A stretch of 64,000 nucleotides of DNA from Chitinophagaceae bacterium (GCA_019747705.1 JAIEQM010000019.1:1921-65920), one strand, 5' to 3'. Positions 1-29,156 are shown, counted from the stretch's first letter. Notes: generated from the letters alone by a model not told the origin. Numbers and translations are program-made.

Positions 1-353
1 TCAAGGTAACTGATATAACCATTCAGAATTCGTTCCACTTCATTGATTTTTACTCTGTACAATGATAATTGTTCATCTGAAATATAATTGCAATCGAATG
101 CATCAATCAGGTGATTTAATGATTCGCTTAAAGAACCTCTGGCGATGATACTGAATCTTAGTCTGTCAGGAAATGTTCTTCTGCCATGACCTTCAGAAAT
201 TTGAGCAGGAACAGAACGAATGCTTCGCACAAGCTGGTCAGCCAACCTGAACTTTTCTTCATTAGGGAAAGATTTTACAAGTTCAAAAATTTCTTTTTTC
301 ACTTCCCTGGCTTTTTTCCAAACGTCCAATTCCTCAAAACCCTGATAAGACAT
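1..353 (-). CDS. four-helix-bundle protein (TIGR02436 / 23S rRNA intervening-sequence protein, Avd-like); C-terminus runs off the left edge
   Basis: Own minus-strand translation from the ATG at 353-351: MSYQGFEELDVWKKAREVKKEIFELVKSFPNEEKFRLADQLVRSIRSVPAQISEGHGRRTFPDRLRFSIIARGSLSESLNHLIDA... This is the typical signature of the family. It is absent from the ORF track because there is no stop inside the window. Confidence 0.7.
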   Translation of the reverse strand, partial: MSYQGFEELDVWKKAREVKKEIFELVKSFPNEEKFRLADQLVRSIRSVPAQISEGHGRRTFPDRLRFSIIARGSLSESLNHLIDAFDCNYISDEQLSLYRVKINEVERILNGYISYL

Positions 354-429
354 AACGATTTATTTATAGTTACACATTTCCATTCAACTTCATCAACTCA
401 GTCAACTTCATCAACTATTCCTCCAACCA

Positions 430-1224
430 CTACTTCCCTTTAAACACCGGCATCCGTTTCTGCAAAAACGCATTAATCCCTTCTGCATAATCGTCTGTTT
501 GCGCTGCTTTTTGCTGAAACTCATCTTCCAGCAGCAACTGTTCTTCCCAACTATTGGTGAAGGAATGATTCAACGCATGTTTGGAAAAAGCCAATCCTTT
601 GGTGGGCATTTGTGCCAATGTATGTGCCAGCTTTTTGCTTTCTTCTTCAAAGGTTACATCAGGAAATACTTTATACACCATACCTAAACGTTCGGCTTCG
701 TTTGCAGAAACTTTATCACCCGTCATCATCAAGGCGCTTGCTTTTTGCCAGCCGATTAATCTGGGCAATGTAAAGGTGCCGCCGCTATCTGGTATCAAAC
801 CAATTTTTGAAAATGCCTGGATAAATGAAGCTGATTCAGCAGCCACCACCACATCGCAACACAATGCAATGTTAGCGCCTGCACCAGCAGCAACTCCATT
901 CACAGCAGCTACAACAGGCTTGGGCAAATTGCGGATGCGTTTTACAATGGGGTTGTAATGTTCAGATAAAATTTGAGCGATTGTTATCTCCTCCTCCTTG
1001 GAGGGAGGTTGGGAGGGGGCCAACTCACTGATGTCCTGACCTGCACTGAATGCTTTTCCATTGCCTGTGATATAGACACAACGCACTTCATGCAGCGATG
1101 CACATTCATCCAAACGGTTTTGCAAAAGCAAAGCCATTTCACGGTTGAATGAATTAAATTTTTCAGGGCGGTTGAGATGGATAGTTGCAACCGCATCTTT
1201 GATTTCAAACTGAACAGGGGTCAT
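430..1224 (-). CDS. enoyl-CoA hydratase/isomerase (crotonase fold, PaaG-like)
   Basis: 264 aa with crotonase motifs: GNGKAFSAGQD, PKPVVAAVNGVAAGAGANIAL, EGINAFLQKRMPVF. Confidence 0.85.
   Translation of the reverse strand: MTPVQFEIKDAVATIHLNRPEKFNSFNREMALLLQNRLDECASLHEVRCVYITGNGKAFSAGQDISELAPSQPPSKEEEITIAQILSEHYNPIVKRIRNLPKPVVAAVNGVAAGAGANIALCCDVVVAAESASFIQAFSKIGLIPDSGGTFTLPRLIGWQKASALMMTGDKVSANEAERLGMVYKVFPDVTFEEESKKLAHTLAQMPTKGLAFSKHALNHSFTNSWEEQLLLEDEFQQKAAQTDDYAEGINAFLQKRMPVFKGK
988..1021 (+). repeat. GC-rich hairpin + G-tract element (family A-like) inside the enoyl-CoA hydratase CDS
   Basis: ctcctcctccttggagggaggttgggagggggcc: stem CCTCCT/GGGAGG followed by GGTTGGGAGGGGG. It encodes LAPSQPPSKEEE on the gene strand. 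Confidence 0.45.
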
Positions 1225-11123: not shown

Positions 11124-11202
11124 AGCAAGAAATTGTTATAGATTGAAGGTAGGAAGAAAAGCGGTTACTTGTCAGGCCACTCAAAGAGGCCAGACAAGTA
11201 AC

Positions 11203-11697
11203 TTAATGACACTTAAAATAATCAAACGGCTCTTGGCAATCATTGCATTGATACAAAGCTTTGCAGGCGGTGCTGCCAAATTCGCTGATGAGGTTGGTGT
11301 GCTGCGAATTACAGTGAGGGCATGTTACATTATCGTTTGGCCATCTGGAATGGCCTGACGAATATTGCGGCGGTGCAATACCGTATTCTTTCAACTTTCT
11401 TTTTCCCTCTTCACTCATCCAATCAGTGGTCCAGGCGGGAGAAAGTACGGAAGTAACTTTTATATTTTGTATTCCATGCTCAGCAAGTGCAAGCCGGATG
11501 TTTGTTGCAATCATATCCATTGCGGGGCAACCATTATAAGTTGGTGTGATAAAAACTTCCACACTTCCATCATCTTTTAACTGCACATCACGCAAAATGC
11601 CGAGGTCGTTGATGGTGAGTACAGGAACTTCAGGGTCAGTTACTGTTTCTAAAATTCCAAGCAGCAATTCTTTTGATATGTTTGCTGTGTTTACCAT
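11203..11697 (-). CDS. paaD: 1,2-phenylacetyl-CoA epoxidase subunit PaaD
   Basis: 164 aa with DPEVPVLTINDLGILRDV and a C-terminal CPxC...CxxC cluster. Operon context; overlaps the paaC end by 7 nt. Confidence 0.85.
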   Translation of the reverse strand: MVNTANISKELLLGILETVTDPEVPVLTINDLGILRDVQLKDDGSVEVFITPTYNGCPAMDMIATNIRLALAEHGIQNIKVTSVLSPAWTTDWMSEEGKRKLKEYGIAPPQYSSGHSRWPNDNVTCPHCNSQHTNLISEFGSTACKALYQCNDCQEPFDYFKCH

Positions 11698-12497
11698 TGT
11701 GAGTTGGGATAGGCTCTTTGCAGGTATTGCAAATCAGCAAGAATATATCCGAGGTGTTCCGTGTGTGTACCTGTTTTACCGCCTGTTTGCATGAATACAG
11801 CCCCCCCACCCCCCGAAGGGAGGATTAAAGCAGCTTCTGCAAAAACTGTATTCACTTTTTCAGTCCACCTGTTATTAATATCATTGAAATCAATATTCAA
11901 ATGCAATTCATAATCTGCAGCTATAAACATTTCGCCTGTATAACACCACAGTTCATTAATGGCATGCAGCATCCGTTGTTTGCTTTCAGCAGTACCATCA
12001 CCCAAACGAATGACCCACTCACTGCTCCAGCGCACATGATAGTTGGTTTCTTTTAATGATTTGGTTGCAATGGCTGCTATGTGTTCATCATTATGATGTT
12101 GCAGTTGCTGAAATAGCAATTGCTGAAACTGGCTGTATAAATATTGGCGAAGGATGGTTTGTCCCCAATCGCTATTGGGTTGTTCTGCAAGAAGAAGGTT
12201 TTTGAATTGTCGCTCTGTGCGTAAGTATGCTAATGTGTCTTCGTTCACCTCATCCCCAACCCTTTCTCCCTGAGGAGAAGGGGCTTTTACGCCCTCCGCT
12301 TTTTTTGACTCGTTGATTAGTTGTGCAGCATATTGATAAAACAATCTTGCCTGTCCTAATAAATCCAATGAGATATTTGTTAATGCAATATCCTGCTCCA
12401 GGATTGGGCCATGCCCGCACCATTCACTGTTTCTGTGAGAGAGAATGAGTGTGGTATCGGCTAAGTGCAGCAGGTAATTTATGAGTGGGTTATTCAT
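11691..12497 (-). CDS. paaC: 1,2-phenylacetyl-CoA epoxidase subunit PaaC (carries two hairpin-element insertions)
   Basis: 268 aa with LLHLADTTLILSHRNSEWCGHGPILEQDIALTNISLDLLGQAR and C-terminal GGKTGTHTEHLGYILADLQYLQRAYP. Operon context. Confidence 0.85.
   Translation of the reverse strand: MNNPLINYLLHLADTTLILSHRNSEWCGHGPILEQDIALTNISLDLLGQARLFYQYAAQLINESKKAEGVKAPSPQGERVGDEVNEDTLAYLRTERQFKNLLLAEQPNSDWGQTILRQYLYSQFQQLLFQQLQHHNDEHIAAIATKSLKETNYHVRWSSEWVIRLGDGTAESKQRMLHAINELWCYTGEMFIAADYELHLNIDFNDINNRWTEKVNTVFAEAALILPSGGGGAVFMQTGGKTGTHTEHLGYILADLQYLQRAYPNSQW
11800..11825 (-). repeat. GC-rich hairpin + G-tract element, family A, in frame in paaC
   Basis: Gene strand ATCCTCCCTTCGGGGGGTGGGGGGGC encodes ILPSGGGGA. 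Confidence 0.7.
12246..12284 (-). repeat. hairpin element, family B, in frame in paaC
   Basis: Gene strand GCCCCTTCTCCTCAGGGAGAAAGGGTTGGGGATGAGGTG encodes APSPQGERVGDEV. It is near-identical in architecture to 27369-27407. Confidence 0.7.
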
Positions 12498-13587
12498 TTT
12501 CTGCTTTTTTTAATTCGTTATCCCATTCTTCCGGCGTAGGAAGTTCTGTTTGAATTTCAGATGGCAGTTCCATATAAGTAAAACTGCTGATTCCTATGGG
12601 GTTCGCAATATCTTTCAGTGAAAAATCAACAACTACATTGTCTTTGTTTTTGCATAACAGGATGCCGATAGCAGGTTTATCCTCTTTACCTTTTATTGTT
12701 TCATTAATGGCATTGATGTAAAAATTCATTTTCCCTGCATGCTCAGGTTCAAATTCATTCATTTTTAAATCAATAATAATGAACCGCTTTAAATGAATAT
12801 GATAAAACAGCAGGTCAGTCTTAAACTCCCTGTTACCCGCTTTGAGCACATATTGCCTTCCCAGGTAAGCAAAGCCCCTGCCCAGTTCCAGTAAAAATTC
12901 AGTGATATGCTGTACTAATTTTTTTTCAAGCTCAAGCTCTTTTACTGTGGCAGAGAGCGACAGAAATTCAAAATTATAAGGGTCTTTGAGTAATTCAATT
13001 GCCAAATCACTGTCTTCTTTCGGCAAAGTGTTTTCAAAATTGGTAACAGCTTTTCCCTGCCGTTTGTACAAGCCGCTTTCTATTTGATATTCTAATACAG
13101 AACGGCTCCAGTTGTTGAGAATGGTTTGTTGAACGTAAAACAGAACTTCTTCTCTGTCCTTAACTTTTTCAATGATAAAAACATTATGCTTCCATGGAAT
13201 TTGAGAGCAGAACTTTATTATCTCCGGCAAATTCGTTTGTCCCCCAGGCCGGGGGATAACTAAAGCATCAATTTGTCCCCCAGGCCGGGGGACAAATTGA
13301 AATGAAGCGTAAAACTGATAAAACTTTTTTACTGCGAATAAATTTGTGCGGGAAAACCCGCCCATATCCGGAAAAGCGGCCTTCAAATCTTTGCTTAGCT
13401 GTTCAATAAAACCGCTGCCCCATTTGCTCAATTCCTGTTTCTCAGTTATTTGTTTGCCGAGCTCCCAATACAATAATATTAATTGACTGTTTACGGCAAC
13501 GGCCGCCTTTAATTGCCTTTGTTTGATAACAGCTTTTAAATTTGTTATCCAGTTTTTGTATTCTTTATTGTTTGAAAATAAATCCAT
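12490..13587 (-). CDS. DUF1016 / YhcG-family PD-(D/E)XK nuclease, inserted between paaB and paaC
   Basis: 365 aa. The N-terminal AVAVNSQLILLYWELGKQI...WGSGFIEQLSKDLKAAFPDMGGFSRTNLFAVKKFY is typical of YhcG/DUF1016. The C-terminal IIDLK...EPEHAGKMNFY is a PD-(D/E)XK-like core. Confidence 0.75.
   Translation of the reverse strand: MDLFSNNKEYKNWITNLKAVIKQRQLKAAVAVNSQLILLYWELGKQITEKQELSKWGSGFIEQLSKDLKAAFPDMGGFSRTNLFAVKKFYQFYASFQFVPRPGGQIDALVIPRPGGQTNLPEIIKFCSQIPWKHNVFIIEKVKDREEVLFYVQQTILNNWSRSVLEYQIESGLYKRQGKAVTNFENTLPKEDSDLAIELLKDPYNFEFLSLSATVKELELEKKLVQHITEFLLELGRGFAYLGRQYVLKAGNREFKTDLLFYHIHLKRFIIIDLKMNEFEPEHAGKMNFYINAINETIKGKEDKPAIGILLCKNKDNVVVDFSLKDIANPIGISSFTYMELPSEIQTELPTPEEWDNELKKAENE
13236..13297 (-). 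repeat. two tandem copies of a perfect GTCCCCC-AGGCC-GGGGGA hairpin, 36 bp apart, in frame in the DUF1016 gene
   Basis: The 21-mer tttgtcccccaggccggggga occurs at 13236-13256 and 13272-13292. It encodes VPRPGGQ ... IPRPGGQ. Confidence 0.8.
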
Positions 13588-13600
13588 TGCAGTTACGGCA

Positions 13601-13984
13601 TTACATATAATTCACCTCATCCGGTAATTGATAAAACGTTGGATGACGATATACTTTATCAACCGCAGGTTCATACAACTCACCTGCTTCTTCAGGGTTA
13701 CTTGCAGTAATGTATTTACTTTCCACCACCCAAATACTTACACCTTCCATTCTTCTTGTATATACATCTCTCGCATTTTCAATAGCCATCTGCGCATCTG
13801 CTGCATGCAGGCTGCCTACATGTTTGTGGTCTAATCCCTGTTTGCTTCTGATAAATACTTCCCACAAAGGCCAACCCCCTCCGCCCCCTGAAGGGGGAAC
13901 TTGAGAGCTTTCATTTTTTATTTCTCCTCCTGAATTAGTATCAGGAATATCACCGTAATAAAATTTTCTGATTAAGAAGTTCAT
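13601..13984 (-). CDS. paaB: 1,2-phenylacetyl-CoA epoxidase subunit PaaB with N-terminal extension
   Basis: 127 aa. The core WPLWEVFIRSKQGLDHKHVGSLHAADAQMAIENARDVYTRR...YRHPTFY is canonical PaaB. About 35 extra N-terminal residues contain a hairpin element. Confidence 0.85.
   Translation of the reverse strand: MNFLIRKFYYGDIPDTNSGGEIKNESSQVPPSGGGGGWPLWEVFIRSKQGLDHKHVGSLHAADAQMAIENARDVYTRRMEGVSIWVVESKYITASNPEEAGELYEPAVDKVYRHPTFYQLPDEVNYM
13869..13900 (-). repeat. GC-rich hairpin + G-tract element, family A, in frame in the paaB 5' part
   Basis: Gene strand GTTCCCCCTTCAGGGGGCGGAGGGGGTTGGCC encodes VPPSGGGGGW, directly fused to the conserved WPLWEV. Confidence 0.75.
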
Positions 13985-13995
13985 GAAAAATAATT

Positions 13996-14502
13996 TTATT
14001 GTTTAAAACCAATTCTTGTTCTGTTTTTAAAATCTTCTTCTGTTTGTTTTTCTGCAACCAAATATTCAAGTGCTTTAAATATCTCTTTAAAATTTTTACT
14101 ATACTTTTTCTCAAGCTTTATTATTTTTTCGTACAGTTCTTTATGTGCCAATGCGGTTTGCCTGATTAACACAAATGTGCGGATGATAATGATATTTACC
14201 TGTATTGCCTTTTCACTGTTTAATACGCTTGATAGCATAGCAACACCCTGTTCTGTAAACACAAAAGGTTTTGCGCCGCCTAATTTACTTTTTGATGGTA
14301 TCACAAATTGTGATACCATATTTTCAATTTCTTTATCGGTCAATTGAAACATGAAATCGGAAGGAAACCGGTGAAGATTTCTTTTAACCGCCTGTTTCAA
14401 AACCCTTGTTTCTACTTCATACATTTCTGCTAAATCAAAATCCAGCATTACTTTCAAGCCACGGATTTCATAAATCTTAGTTTGTATAACCGATAGCTGC
14501 AT
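13996..14502 (-). CDS. ORF6N-domain protein (KilA-N-related DNA-binding family), inserted between paaA and paaB
   Basis: 168 aa. IYEIRGLKVMLDFDLAEMYEVETRVLKQAVKRNLHRFPSDFMFQLT...FVFTEQGVAMLSSVLNSEKAIQVNI is the ORF6N signature. Confidence 0.75.
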   Translation of the reverse strand: MQLSVIQTKIYEIRGLKVMLDFDLAEMYEVETRVLKQAVKRNLHRFPSDFMFQLTDKEIENMVSQFVIPSKSKLGGAKPFVFTEQGVAMLSSVLNSEKAIQVNIIIIRTFVLIRQTALAHKELYEKIIKLEKKYSKNFKEIFKALEYLVAEKQTEEDFKNRTRIGFKQ

Positions 14503-14550
14503 ATAATAGAATTTATGGCTATAGAATTTGCTATAGAAAATTAGTTTTTA

Positions 14551-15528
14551 TCAGGCTGCCTTTAAAGCCCCGGAATTTATCCCGCCATCAGCGGGAGGGG
14601 TTTGGGGCTTCTTCTTCTCCGCATGCGCCATTGCTGCTTCTCTCACCCATTTACCATTTTCATGTGCTTTACGCCGTGCATCTAATCTTTGCTTATTGCA
14701 GGGGCCATTACCTTTCACCACATTCCAGAATTCATCCCAGTTAATTTCACCAAAATCATAATGCTTTCGTTCTTCATTCCACTTTAAATCTTTATCAGGC
14801 AGAGTCATTCCTAATACTTTTACCTGCCCGGCAATCATATCTACAAAATTCTGACGCAACTCATCATTGGTTTTGCGTTTGATTTTCCATTTCATGCTCT
14901 GGTCGCTGTTGGTGCTTTCACTATCCTTTGGCCCAAACATCATGAGTGAAGGCCACCACCATCTGTTAATCGCATCCTGGCACATGGCTTTTTGTTCAGC
15001 CGTTCCTTTACTTAAAACCAATAATGATTCAAAACCCTGCCGCTGATGAAAACTTTCTTCTTTGCAAATACGCACCATCGCACGTGCATATGGACCGTAG
15101 CTTGTACGTGTGAGCATCACCTGGTTCATAATAGCAGCGCCATCCACCAGCCAGCCGATGGCGCCCATATCAGCCCATGTTAATGTGGGATAATTAAAGA
15201 TGGATGAATATTTTGCTTTGCCGCTGTGCAGGTCATTTATCATTTCATCCCTGCTCATACCCAATGTTTCAGCAGCAGAATATAAATACAAACCATGACC
15301 TGCTTCATCCTGCACTTTGGCAATTAATATTGCTTTGCGTTTGAGTGATGGGGCACGGGTAATCCAGTTGCCTTCGGGCAGCATACCTACAATTTCGCTG
15401 TGTGCATGCTGACTGATTTGCCGGATGTTTGTTTTTCGGTACGCATCAGGCATCCAATCCTTAGGTTCAATTTTTGTTTCAGCATCAATTTGCTGTTGAA
15501 AGTGTGCTTCTAAATCGTGGATAGACAT
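14551..15528 (-). CDS. paaA: 1,2-phenylacetyl-CoA epoxidase catalytic subunit PaaA
   Basis: 325 aa ferritin-like di-iron protein: [37 protein letters not shown]. Confidence 0.9.
14579..14608 (+). repeat. GC-rich hairpin + G-tract element in the 3' tail of paaA
   Basis: atcccgccatcagcgggaggggtttggggc: stem TCCCGC/GCGGGA then GGGGTTTGGGG. It encodes the tail [11 protein letters not shown] just before the stop. Confidence 0.65.
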
Positions 15529-15620: not shown

Positions 15621-16703
15621 TCACTTCACATCAAAATCCACCACTACCTTTTCTGTTTTGGGATGGCTTTGACAGGTGAGTATATAACCCAATGCAATTT
15701 CTTCATGGTCTAAACCCCAGTTTACATCCATTTCCACTTCGCCTTCTACCAGTTTGGCTTTGCAGGTGCAGCACACACCGCCTTTGCAGGCATACGGTAC
15801 ATCAGCGCCCTGTTGCATAGCGGCGTCAAGAATGGTGGCATCACTGCTGAGCGGAATATCAAACAAAAATGTTTTTCCATCCAGCTTCATTTCTATTTTA
15901 GTTGCAGGAATGTTTTCACTTGCAACTTGTGCCTTGTTACTTGTGCCTTTATTTTTTTTTTCCGTAGTAAACAACTCAAAGTGAATGTTTTTTTCATCCA
16001 CGCCATGTGCTTCTAAAAATTCCTGCACTTCAAAAATCATTTGTTGCGGGCCGCAGAGAAAAAACTCATGAGCATGTTTCAGGTCAACTAATTTTTCAAA
16101 AAGATGACTGCACTTGTCTTTGGTAATTCTTCCGAAGTTGATGGCCGCATCAGTTTTTTCCCTGCTTAAAATATGAATAAGGGTGAAGCGCTCCATGTAT
16201 TTATTCTTGAGGCCTTCCAGCTCTTCAAAGAAAATAATACTTGAGCGGCTTTTATTTCCATACACCAATGTAAAACTGCTGTTAGGTTCCGTTGCCAATG
16301 TTGTTTTGATAATGGACATGATGGGGGTAATGCCACTTCCTGCTGCAAAAGCCACATAGTTTTTTTTGTGCGATGCATCAAGCGGTGTATTGAATTTACC
16401 CAATGGCGTCATCACTTCCAGAACATCGCCTTTCTTAAGTTGTTCATTGGCATATACACTGAATAATCCGCCATTTACTTTTTTAACAGCTACTTTGAGT
16501 TTGTTTTCCTGCGGACTTGTACATAAGGAATACGTACGTCTTACTTCTTCACCGTTGAGCGTTGTTTTGATGTTGATGTTTTGTCCCTGTGTGTATTTGA
16601 AATCTTCCTTCAAAGTTTCAGGCACATCAAATTCAATGGAAACGCAATCAGGAGTTTCTTTAATGATATTTTTTACAGCAAGCTTGTGGAAGTGTACAGC
16701 CAT
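15621..16703 (-). CDS. paaE: 1,2-phenylacetyl-CoA epoxidase reductase subunit PaaE (FNR-like + 2Fe-2S ferredoxin)
   Basis: 360 aa with RTYSLC (flavin), GSGITP (NAD) and a C-terminal CKGGVCCTCKAK...C plant-type ferredoxin motif. Confidence 0.9.
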   Translation of the reverse strand: MAVHFHKLAVKNIIKETPDCVSIEFDVPETLKEDFKYTQGQNINIKTTLNGEEVRRTYSLCTSPQENKLKVAVKKVNGGLFSVYANEQLKKGDVLEVMTPLGKFNTPLDASHKKNYVAFAAGSGITPIMSIIKTTLATEPNSSFTLVYGNKSRSSIIFFEELEGLKNKYMERFTLIHILSREKTDAAINFGRITKDKCSHLFEKLVDLKHAHEFFLCGPQQMIFEVQEFLEAHGVDEKNIHFELFTTEKKNKGTSNKAQVASENIPATKIEMKLDGKTFLFDIPLSSDATILDAAMQQGADVPYACKGGVCCTCKAKLVEGEVEMDVNWGLDHEEIALGYILTCQSHPKTEKVVVDFDVK

Positions 16704-16709
16704 TGTTTT

Positions 16710-17300
16710 TTATTTCCGCAATCCATCAATTAAAATCATCACCATATTATCTTCCAGTTCTTTGGCTGAAATTTTTGAAGTGGAGCGGTGCCAGCTTTCA
16801 ATACCACTAACGGCATGCAGCATTACAAGAATGGCTGTAGGGGCGTCAATATTTTTTATTTCGCCTTTTTTAATTCCTTCTTCCAGCAGGGAGGCAAACC
16901 GTTTGCGGTAGTTGCGGCGCTGGTTATGAAAATTGGTGCGGTAAGGTTCTTCCAGGTGTTTCCACTCACGGTCGCTCACAATTACTTCTTCATAGTTTTC
17001 AAACATCTGGTGAATATGAAAACGAAGGATAAGTTCTGCTTTTGCCAGCGGGTTTTCCTTACCGGTATCCACTTCATCAAAATAGGTATTAAAACGGTTG
17101 GCAATTACAAAACAAATAGATTCCAAAATTTCATTTTTGGAACGGATATGATTGTAAAGACTGGCAGCTTCAATGCCGATATTTTCAGCAAGGTCACGCA
17201 TACTGGCAGCTCCAAATCCTTTTTCACGGAAAAGGGCGGCGCCGGCTTTTACAATAATGTCTTTGCGGCTTTCGTTTTTGGCAACTTTCAATTTTCCCAT
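16710..17300 (-). CDS. TetR/AcrR-family transcriptional regulator heading the paa operon
   Basis: 196 aa. N-terminal HTH: IVKAGAALFREKGFGAASMRDLAENIGIEAASLYNHIRSK. Confidence 0.85.
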   Translation of the reverse strand: MGKLKVAKNESRKDIIVKAGAALFREKGFGAASMRDLAENIGIEAASLYNHIRSKNEILESICFVIANRFNTYFDEVDTGKENPLAKAELILRFHIHQMFENYEEVIVSDREWKHLEEPYRTNFHNQRRNYRKRFASLLEEGIKKGEIKNIDAPTAILVMLHAVSGIESWHRSTSKISAKELEDNMVMILIDGLRK

Positions 17301-27560: not shown

Positions 27561-29156
27561 TTAATGTTTAAAATGCCTCATCCCTGTAATCACCATTGCT
27601 AAGTTATGCCCTTTGCAATACGCAATGGAATCATTATCACGAATAGAACCTCCCGGCTGAATAAATGCTGTAATACCTGCTGCATGACCCATCTGCACAC
27701 AATCATTAAACGGAAAGAAGGCATCACTGGCCATTACTGCTCCTTTTAAATCAAAATTAAATTGCTTTGCTTTTTCTACTGACTGACGAAGTGAATCAAT
27801 ACGGCTGGTTTGTCCGCAACCCTTACCCACCAGCTGTTTATTTTTTACCAATGCAATGGCATTACTTTTTAGATGTTTGCAGACGAGGTTGGCAAAAATT
27901 AAATCTTCTTTTTCAGTTGAAGATGTTTCTCTGCCGCCTGCTTCTTTCCATTCAGTGTAATTACCTTCATCTGTTCCCTGTACCAGCACACCGTTGAGTA
28001 ATGATTTAAACTGGTCTTTGACAGAAGGCTGATTTTTTAATTGCAGTAAGATGCGGTTCTTCTTTGATTTTAAGATGCTCAATGCATCTTCATTAAACGA
28101 TGGTGCAATGAGCACTTCAAAAAATATTTCATTGATGGCATCGGCTGTTGCTTTATCAATTTCGCCATTGCAAACCAGCACACCGCCGAATGCACTTTCG
28201 GGGTCGCCTGCCAGTGCTGCATTCCAGCTTTCTTTTACTGTTGAGCGTTGTGCCACACCGCATACATTAGTATGTTTGATGATGGCAAAAACGGCCCCCT
28301 CCGCCCCCCGAGGGGGAACTGCTGCTGCACCTGCCCCGCTTTGCAACGATGCTGATGAATCATTGAACTCTCTTATGAGTTGCATAGCAGCATCCACATC
28401 AACGAGGTTATTGTAAGAGAGTTCTTTTCCATTCAATTGTTGAAACAGTTCATCAAGATTACCATAGAACCGTGCAGTTTGATGCGGATTTTCGCCATAG
28501 CGTAAAATCTTTTCTTCTTGGTTGAAAGGAGTTTCAATTGCCGATTGATGAAAATAATTGCTGATGGCCGTATCATAAGCCGTACATACATCAAATGCTT
28601 TAATGGCAAAACTTCTTCTTTGTTCATAAGAGGTTTCGCCATTTTGATTGCGAAGGATTTCTTCAAGCACTGCATATTCTTTTTTGGCTGCCAGCACCAC
28701 CACATCTTTATGATTTTTGGCAGCAGCACGGATCATGGAAGGCCCGCCGATATCTATCTTTTCAATAATGGCTTTTTCTTTTTCATCATCTCCGCCTTGA
28801 AAGGCGGAGCTATTCACCGCTTGCACGGTTTCTTCAAACGGATATAAATCCACAATCACCAAATCCATTTCAGGAATATTGTACTGTTTCATTTCTGCCA
28901 GATGCTGTTCATCATCCCGCTTGCCGAGGATACCACCAAATACGGAAGGGTGTAATGTTTTAACTCTGCCGCCCAAAATGGATGGATAGGTTGTAAGATT
29001 TTCAACCGGCACAACAGGAATACCCAGCTTTTCAATAAAACTTTGTGTGCCGCTGGTAGAATAAAGAATAACACCCTGCTGATGTAATAACTGAACGAGA
29101 GAATCCAAACCATCTTTATAAAAAACAGAAATGAGTGCTGATTGAATTTTTTTCAT
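27561..29156 (-). CDS. purH: bifunctional AICAR formyltransferase / IMP cyclohydrolase PurH (with internal ~22-codon insertion)
   Basis: 531 aa, collinear with PurH: ALISVFYKDGL, GGRVKTLHP, DIGGPSMIRAAAKNH, IIKHTNVCGVA, MASDAFFPF, GGSIRD, RHFKH. Confidence 0.95.
   Translation of the reverse strand: MKKIQSALISVFYKDGLDSLVQLLHQQGVILYSTSGTQSFIEKLGIPVVPVENLTTYPSILGGRVKTLHPSVFGGILGKRDDEQHLAEMKQYNIPEMDLVIVDLYPFEETVQAVNSSAFQGGDDEKEKAIIEKIDIGGPSMIRAAAKNHKDVVVLAAKKEYAVLEEILRNQNGETSYEQRRSFAIKAFDVCTAYDTAISNYFHQSAIETPFNQEEKILRYGENPHQTARFYGNLDELFQQLNGKELSYNNLVDVDAAMQLIREFNDSSASLQSGAGAAAVPPRGAEGAVFAIIKHTNVCGVAQRSTVKESWNAALAGDPESAFGGVLVCNGEIDKATADAINEIFFEVLIAPSFNEDALSILKSKKNRILLQLKNQPSVKDQFKSLLNGVLVQGTDEGNYTEWKEAGGRETSSTEKEDLIFANLVCKHLKSNAIALVKNKQLVGKGCGQTSRIDSLRQSVEKAKQFNFDLKGAVMASDAFFPFNDCVQMGHAAGITAFIQPGGSIRDNDSIAYCKGHNLAMVITGMRHFKH
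28293..28319 (-). repeat. GC-rich hairpin + G-tract element, family A, in frame in purH
   Basis: Gene strand GTTCCCCCTCGGGGGGCGGAGGGGGCC encodes VPPRGAEGA. It is nearly identical to the paaB copy. Confidence 0.8.

Follow-up and report, generated by a model that had tools for sequence, protein, structure and literature searches.

What are two genes that encode no part of phenylacetyl-CoA epoxidase doing between the genes for its subunits, and how did they come to lie there? The question is raised by a 64,000-nucleotide (nt) stretch of DNA from a Chitinophagaceae bacterium (GCA_019747705.1, JAIEQM010000019.1:1921-65920), analysed here at its full length and referred to as the window, which carries a paaABCDE operon for this enzyme. 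An earlier note on the same DNA had placed an ORF6N gene between paaA and paaB and a DUF1016/YhcG gene between paaB and paaC, both in the orientation of the operon, and our coordinates and Pfam matches agree with this arrangement. On the minus strand the order is TetR-paaE-paaA-ORF6N-paaB-DUF1016/YhcG-paaC-paaD, eight genes that are all co-oriented. The ORF6N gene (13996-14502; 168 amino acids, KilA-N-type DNA-binding, Pfam ORF6N E = 4e-35) starts 48 nt after paaA, which encodes the epoxidase alpha subunit (14551-15528; Pfam PaaA_PaaC E = 5e-97), and ends 11 nt before paaB (13601-13984; Pfam PaaB E = 1e-42, also matched in NCBIfam). The DUF1016 gene (12490-13587) encodes a 365-amino-acid protein of the PD-(D/E)XK nuclease fold with DUF1016_N and YhcG_C domains (Pfam E = 2e-39 and 2e-57, respectively); it follows paaB after 13 nt and overlaps paaC (11691-12497; Pfam PaaA_PaaC E = 2e-82) by 8 nt. 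All five subunit genes are intact and co-oriented with open frames, as judged by Pfam and NCBIfam, and the Pfam E-values for the operon genes are far past chance level. We consider it fairly probable that ORF6N and DUF1016 are two independently acquired accessory genes, candidates for a role in defence, which ride on the expression of the operon in a recurrent insertion hotspot.

The comparison with relatives comprised 80 genome loci found through PaaA, 80 metagenome loci found through PaaB and the loci that surround homologues of the two genes, in all about 170 Bacteroidota paa loci, which are identified below by numbers preceded by L. A junction was scored as empty when its spacer was shorter than 250 nt. 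Empty junctions prevailed at paaA/paaB (116/140), paaB/paaC (131/148) and paaC/paaD (94/116), the occupied ones numbering 24/140, 17/148 and 22/116, respectively. Since most paaA/paaB and paaB/paaC junctions are empty, ORF6N and DUF1016 are insertions into a normally contiguous operon. The empty sites that the earlier note had proposed to look for in relatives are thus the majority state, and filled and empty versions of one position coexist among relatives, as they do for homing genes. The two genes also occur independently of one another. ORF6N is present without DUF1016 in L009, L144 and L172-L181, and L083 has DUF1016 together with a four-helix-bundle gene. Because each is found without the other, the idea that they form a two-gene system was rejected. 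Within the window, tblastn found only the two genes themselves and no paralogue of either, and a Pfam scan of ten more small open reading frames (ORFs) revealed no further nested accessory genes.

The DUF1016 protein is a full-length member of its family. It scored 135 bits against DUF1016_N (cut-off 32.8) and 190.9 bits against YhcG_C (cut-off 32.5), with the domains in this order from the N to the C terminus, and matched the PADLOC model PDC-S02 (E = 7e-137) with residues 5-361 aligned to positions 6-352 of 355. Its catalytic residues are E234, D258, D273 and K275. All of 69 homologues have D258 and K275, and at least 90% of them conserve E234 and position 273, where most homologues have E and the window protein has D. 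The predicted structure was of moderate quality (predicted local distance difference test score, pLDDT, 63), and a fold search with this model gave low template modelling (TM) scores in which every match was a PD-(D/E)XK nuclease (AdnAB, MGME1, NucS/EndoMS, Cas4). These matches are weak and generic, adding nothing beyond the Pfam assignment. A sequence search of the PDB gave noise alone for ORF6N and nothing for DUF1016, for which neither a solved structure nor a characterised relative was found, and neither protein is covered by an NCBIfam model.

Homologues were searched for in a collection of 5.8 billion proteins. The three closest to the window DUF1016 protein (P0002, P0003 and P0004, with 78%, 74% and 68% identity) are all encoded at paaB/paaC, on independent contigs (loci among L082-L086), and the 8-nt stop/start overlap with paaC, ATGAATAA, is common to all four lineages that bear DUF1016 at this junction. 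The next homologues (62-64% identity) are found elsewhere (a pfkB-type kinase/amidotransferase gene interval, a Ferruginibacter chromosome, near an integrase gene), the nearest at a non-paa locus having 64% identity. Among the four junction copies, the nonsynonymous divergence (dN) was 0.13-0.21 and its ratio to the synonymous divergence (dN/dS) was roughly 0.07-0.11, which is the level of the flanking genes (PaaB 0.05-0.13, PaaC 0.07-0.13). The dS values of 1.2-3.2 for DUF1016 compared to 0.9-1.6 for PaaB and PaaC show a gene that has diverged in step with its flanks and is equally saturated. In a neighbour-joining tree of PaaB plus PaaC, the window, L082 and L086 form a group, and L083 is placed nearby, outside it. 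DUF1016 was absent from all 148 paaB/paaC junctions sampled through PaaA or PaaB, without reference to DUF1016, which argues that no sweep has taken place. Decayed copies of DUF1016 or ORF6N were not found in any spacer by a method that readily found remnants of four-helix-bundle genes. Judged from these sequence comparisons, DUF1016 is an old, vertically inherited and selectively maintained gene and not an element that is currently spreading.

The ORF6N protein was assigned to its family with 120 bits (PF10543, cut-off 27.8) and matched the PADLOC PDC-S05 model PDLC04856 (E = 7e-56) over 10-175 of 177. ORF6N is its sole Pfam match, and no RhuM domain was found in it. The four nearest homologues looked up (86, 77, 77 and 74% identity) all lie at paaA/paaB, where orthologues are present in L009, L116, L144, L172, L176, L178 and L180; a 66% homologue in Lutibacter is solitary, between housekeeping genes. 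Selection on the gene is purifying, with a dN/dS of 0.04-0.19. Its G+C content is 0.32 compared to 0.41 ± 0.03 for the window, the lowest against all 32 long ORFs. The divergence of ORF6N is uncorrelated with that of PaaB (r = -0.03, n = 21), and between the window and L172 its dS is only 0.49, compared to 1.43 for PaaA, 1.97 for PaaB and 2.55 for PaaC. Taken together, the low dS relative to the flanks, the missing correlation with PaaB and the low G+C content suggest that ORF6N has moved laterally at least once from one paa operon to another at this junction, after the operons had diverged. It probably did so by homologous recombination in the conserved flanking genes.

We searched the spaces between the cistrons for signals that could separate the nested genes from the operon. 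A sigma-70 promoter and terminator scan gave no terminator-like or promoter-like signal above chance, the sigma-70 counts being at chance level with a model that is ill-suited to Bacteroidota. The 48-nt spacer between paaA and ORF6N (14503-14550, minus strand) contains AATTCTATAG direct repeats and has no recognisable promoter or terminator. Bacteroidetes-type TAnnTTTG motifs in a suitable position were found only 12 nt upstream of the TetR gene and 27 nt upstream of the paaA start. Co-transcription of ORF6N and DUF1016 with the paa operon is plausible on these sequence grounds; as neither gene has a promoter or terminator that we could recognise, both would most likely be transcribed from the paa promoter. 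In the 8-nt overlap (12490-12497, minus strand), the start codon of paaC lies within the last codons of DUF1016. The conservation of this overlap suggests that translation of DUF1016 and paaC is most likely coupled, and the overlap would hinder clean loss of the gene and stabilise the arrangement.

In other lineages the same junctions hold quite different genes. A Septu pair, PtuA (E = 5e-79) and PtuB (E = 5e-50), occupies paaA/paaB in a Bacteroidia metagenome-assembled genome (L026, 8966-10644), PIN genes are present at these paa junctions in L047 and L120, and a HEPN gene is present in L077. The paaE/paaA spacer, which in the window has 92 nt and is empty, contains endonuclease-like genes with HNH_3, NUMOD4 and helix-turn-helix domains at five loci (L006 6393-6968, L011 7316-7873, L014 6653-7240, L020 7385-7936 and L172 2372-2923), and this is the domain make-up of the free-standing homing endonucleases of phages. 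The suggestion of the earlier note that the region is an insertion hotspot is borne out by these and the other selfish or defence-type genes. Two further kinds of gene are perhaps not selfish and may instead be genuine accessories of the pathway: a CPBP/Rce1-like membrane protease gene at paaC/paaD in 12 loci (L004, L015, L094, L104, L125, L127, L133, L134, L140, L142, L156 and L162), and a small lipoprotein gene without a Pfam match at paaA/paaB in 10 loci (L004, L007, L010, L114, L117, L134, L136, L144, L166 and one more). In L026, an ORF that by appearance resembles an FKBP-type isomerase comes after PtuA/PtuB.

Both families are large and found in many contexts, plasmids and phages included. 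DUF1016 homologues are carried by 530 plasmids and by WO phages of Wolbachia, and on two Bacteroidota plasmids a homologue lies near replication modules and other defence-like genes. Computational screens list both of these horizontally spread families as candidate single-gene anti-phage systems (PDC-S05 for ORF6N and PDC-S02 for DUF1016). Nested positions of this type have precedents. Type I restriction-modification operons are reported to have DUF1016 genes lodged among their core genes, and DUF1016 genes are also enriched next to targets of programmed inversion (PMC9881135). In those operons, as in the window, DUF1016 (pfam06250) is single, co-oriented and located between the cistrons of a multi-subunit system, and RhuM, ORF6N-type genes are likewise nested; however, the host operon here is catabolic and not a defence operon, and restriction-modification genes are not nearby. 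In the conjugative element pLbaR of Rickettsia felis, a DUF1016 gene separates traU from traW (PMC4316617). This case is similar in that a solitary DUF1016 gene piggybacks in a conserved operon with evidence of lateral origin, whereas the carrier pLbaR is itself mobile and the operon of the window is chromosomal and metabolic, with long vertical inheritance. Defence islands are approached by the membership of both proteins at the level of hidden Markov models (HMMs) and by the presence of Septu, a confirmed defence system, at paaA/paaB in L026. Unlike in such islands, the genes here are single and scattered in an operon, with no recombinase or mobile-element boundary visible.

We propose that ORF6N and DUF1016, which are unrelated to each other and would be no parts of the epoxidase, inserted separately into the intercistronic spacers of paaABCD in ancestors within the Chitinophagaceae. 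After insertion both would have been carried with the operon, intact and under purifying selection, DUF1016 by vertical inheritance and ORF6N with at least one exchange between diverged operons. The paa cluster of Bacteroidota repeatedly takes up small genes of selfish or defence type, and the window shows one of its filled states. Several points weigh against this account. A component recruited into the operon would likewise show long retention at a fixed position under selection, and the dN/dS values are approximate, since dS has reached saturation in most comparisons. The placement of L083, taken from a simple neighbour-joining tree, is equally compatible with a single insertion and later losses and with two separate gains. 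Neither nested gene has flanking repeats or target duplications that would indicate an insertion mechanism, and what argues for co-transcription is solely that signals are missing, in a scan ill-suited to Bacteroidota. The one PDC-S02 representative that was tested gave no protection against T4, T5 or T7 in Escherichia coli B, and a PDC-S05 representative with a RhuM domain lowered T7 and T5 plating about 1000-fold (preprint 10.1101/2024.09.26.614923). The ORF6N protein of the window does not share the Virulence_RhuM architecture of the protective PDC-S05 representative. The function of both proteins is one that we infer.

A third gene family occupies the same junctions in relatives. The earlier note had seen a TIGR02436 gene just downstream of another paa-type gene, and this holds. 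The four-helix-bundle gene at 3-353 (minus strand; TIGR02436/23S_rRNA_IVP, Avd-like) is cut by the window edge, and it belongs to S23p/TIGR02436 with 103.8 bits (cut-off 24; E = 5.6e-30; local HMM E = 8e-45). It lies downstream of, and co-oriented with, an enoyl-CoA hydratase/isomerase gene (430-1224, minus strand) for which PaaG is the best match, below the equivalog cut-off. Just upstream of the four-helix-bundle gene is a GTTGATGAAGTTGACTGAGTTGATGAAGTTGA repeat block (359-420, minus strand) of the GTTGAT type, the motif type that flanks the cassette in L002. Only this upstream arm is visible, and the partner side would lie beyond the window edge. The local HMM found no second copy of the gene in the window.

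At the paa junctions of relatives we found 17 23S_rRNA_IVP four-helix-bundle genes, 8 at paaA/paaB and 9 at paaB/paaC, which represent two orthologous lineages and the distinct copy of L002. Junction cassettes with flanking inverted repeats are present in L002, L003, L083, L100, L106, L107 and L152, and the repeats consist of low-complexity motifs (GGAATTAGGAATTGGG..., AT-rich TGATTATTGATTA... and GTTGATAAGTTGA...). In minimum-energy folds, 6 of 8 cassette spacers closed with a stem of 18-61 bp that was stronger than in all 200 shuffles. Long spacers devoid of ORFs contain decayed four-helix-bundle genes in L089 (6381-6662), L091 (5707-6001) and L071 (8888-9392), two with internal deletions and one with an in-frame TGA (Ekhidna lutea). 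All three keep their flanking repeats, which indicates that such genes are gained, decay and are lost in a cycle. Quantification over the 1.58 Mb that surround 157 of the loci found through PaaA or PaaB, an unbiased sample, revealed that 20 of 30 four-helix-bundle matches fall inside the paaA-D span, a density of 5.1 per 100 kb compared to 0.84 outside (about six-fold; binomial P = 1.6e-6). The remaining ten are close to paa genes on the operon strand, nine of them downstream of paaD. The flanking stems, the decayed copies and the enrichment within paaA-D all fit the description of this family in the earlier note as an 'intervening' element. The paaB/paaC spacers of L013 and L014 carry GTTGATA-type arrays, which are similar to the flanking repeats of some of these cassettes and may be relics of lost ones.

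In the intervening sequences of 23S rRNA, the S23p ORF lies inside a stem that is cut by RNase III (PMC4990558). The junction cassettes share with these sequences the protein family, the complementary arms (one arm in the window copy), the sporadic distribution and the decaying ORFs; in contrast, they are located in a messenger RNA operon, and ORF6N and DUF1016 have no flanking arms. There is also a wider reading, which we hold only tentatively. The paa cluster of Bacteroidota could serve as a dedicated landing pad on which a guild of small operon-nesting genes settles between cistrons; the cassettes would be messenger RNA counterparts of the 23S rRNA intervening sequences with their stems as RNase III sites, and ORF6N and DUF1016 the long-lived, domesticated end of this process. 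The guild may include the four-helix-bundle cassettes, ORF6N, DUF1016, PIN, HEPN, HNH and Septu genes, all expressed by read-through. In such a cluster the stems may cause the polycistron to be cut by RNase III, and phage defence by ORF6N and DUF1016 may be co-induced with the catabolic operon.

Separate acquisition of two accessory genes has to be weighed against their recruitment into the pathway, with ORF6N as a regulator of paa expression and DUF1016 in some operon-linked role. The Pfam description of the ORF6N family as a DNA-binding fold would suit a regulator, and recruitment would also account for a position fixed over long divergence, for purifying selection as strong as that on the enzyme subunits and for the tight gene spacing with its overlaps. 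We nevertheless consider it unlikely. The majority of paa operons in the same family are intact without either gene, the two occur independently, other lineages fill these sites with quite different genes, both families are found mainly in defence, mobile-element and plasmid contexts, and the cluster already has a TetR-type regulator.

Unlikely, too, is a homing origin, which the earlier note had evoked by likening the arrangement to that of free-standing homing endonuclease genes located between conserved phage genes. Genes of this kind include seg and mob of phage T4. On this explanation DUF1016 would cut empty paaB/paaC junctions and be copied into them by repair, and ORF6N would spread alike or with a helper. 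The PD-(D/E)XK fold with intact catalytic residues is compatible with this mechanism, and the two genes resemble seg and mob in being co-oriented, exactly intercistronic and present or absent among relatives, with empty sites. HNH_3/NUMOD4 genes of the homing type are found at paaE/paaA in the five loci given above, and between the window and L172 ORF6N is far less diverged at synonymous sites than its flanks are. In addition, L083 has DUF1016 yet falls outside the main carrier clade. The gene histories, however, speak for inheritance. Unlike seg and mob, DUF1016 is congruent with its flanks: its three nearest homologues, at the identical junction, are as diverged as PaaB and PaaC under purifying selection with a dN/dS of about 0.1, and only ORF6N is discordant, for the single pair of the window and L172. 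A homing gene would leave degraded copies at the site, and none was found for either gene, whereas decayed four-helix-bundle copies were easily found by the same method. The 148 unbiased paaB/paaC junctions without DUF1016, the identity of merely 64% to the nearest copy at another locus and the absence of a nuclease domain from ORF6N point in the same direction. The stable architecture under purifying selection that the earlier note had named as the finding that would speak against its comparison is present within a sub-clade and does not extend family-wide.

The long retention of both genes could also be that of addictive selfish elements, whose loss harms the cell either because they are toxin-like or because translation of paaC demands their precise removal, and which give the host no benefit. 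Most deletions would indeed damage paaC expression, given the conserved stop/start overlap, and genes of the toxin-antitoxin type (PIN, HEPN) occupy the same junctions elsewhere; but selection covers the whole of DUF1016 including its catalytic residues, beyond what translation up to the paaC start needs, and no partner antitoxin gene is present, which makes this explanation improbable.

The last alternative concerns hairpins. The earlier note had described this region as the densest cluster of hairpin elements, and the 12-14 kb interval is indeed the densest 2-kb bin, with 7 of the 36 runs of at least five G or C in the window. GC-rich hairpins lie in frame in the C-terminal tail of paaA (about 14560-14610), in the N-terminal extension of PaaB (13875-13897) and, as two hairpin-encoded indels, in paaC (about 12246-12290 and about 11808-11830). 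They are translated, for example as PPSGGGGG or KAPSPQGERVGDEV, and amount to in-frame indels in variable loops of PaaA, PaaB and PaaC, whose presence among orthologues is independent of DUF1016. The linker between the two domains of DUF1016 contains the palindrome TTTGTCCCCCAGGCCGGGGGACAA twice (13236-13296), encoding VPRPGGQ and IPRPGGQ where the family has a tandem x-Q-x-x-G-Q motif. The stronger of the linker palindromes (13268-13300, minus strand) has a terminator-like stem of 15 pairs and a weak T-rich tail, and lies within the coding sequence. The paaB hairpin has a near-identical second copy at 28295-28316. In relatives, paaB/paaC spacers that are otherwise empty are often palindromic (L009, L010, L011, L013 and L014 among them). 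In neither the window nor the orthologous loci are the borders of ORF6N and DUF1016 marked by hairpins or repeats. The two further proposals of the earlier note, that hairpins and nested genes share one insertion mechanism or that the DUF1016 nuclease mobilises the hairpins, are highly improbable: against the crowding of G/C runs in this bin, the hairpins within about 100 nt of ORF6N on either side and the palindromes in empty spacers stand the hairpins of L176, L178 and L180, which are present without DUF1016 at the locus, their nature as coding indels off the gene borders, the ORF6N orthologues of L144 and L116 without adjoining hairpins and the coincidence of the DUF1016 palindromes with a conserved peptide motif of the family.

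If the two nested genes are accessory and defence-related, as we favour, their location matters for where such genes are sought. Searches for candidate defence genes usually turn to islands and mobile elements; here two such genes lie singly between metabolic subunit genes, appear to depend on the operon for expression and have long been kept. Should this be general, searches based on islands miss part of the accessory gene pool, and the junctions within operons merit treatment as sites of integration. At the paa locus, many lineages together provide a natural series of junctions that are empty, filled or decayed, with which one can ask by what route such genes enter, what they cost the operon and what the DUF1016 and ORF6N proteins, both of very large families, do.

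The remaining parts of the cluster are of the expected kind. At its head is the TetR-family regulator gene (16710-17300, minus strand; Pfam TetR_N and TetR_C_24), followed by paaE for the reductase subunit with its FAD, NAD and 2Fe-2S domains (15621-16703, minus strand; Pfam). At the other end, paaD (11203-11697, minus strand; Pfam PaaD zinc ribbon E = 6e-23) is immediately followed by an 18-bp inverted repeat (11164-11202, minus strand), found by repeat search and inspection of the sequence, which is the likely terminator of the operon. PaaB has an N-terminal extension of 37 amino acids (13874-13984) with the motif RKFYYGDIPE, which is conserved in Chitinophagaceae and missing from the PaaB proteins of Saprospiraceae and Flavobacteriia and from the Pfam model. 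Among the comparison loci, the metagenome contig L111 has two paa clusters that are convergent: the second is on the opposite strand and divergent in sequence (36-53% identity), and the first shows apparent frameshifts.

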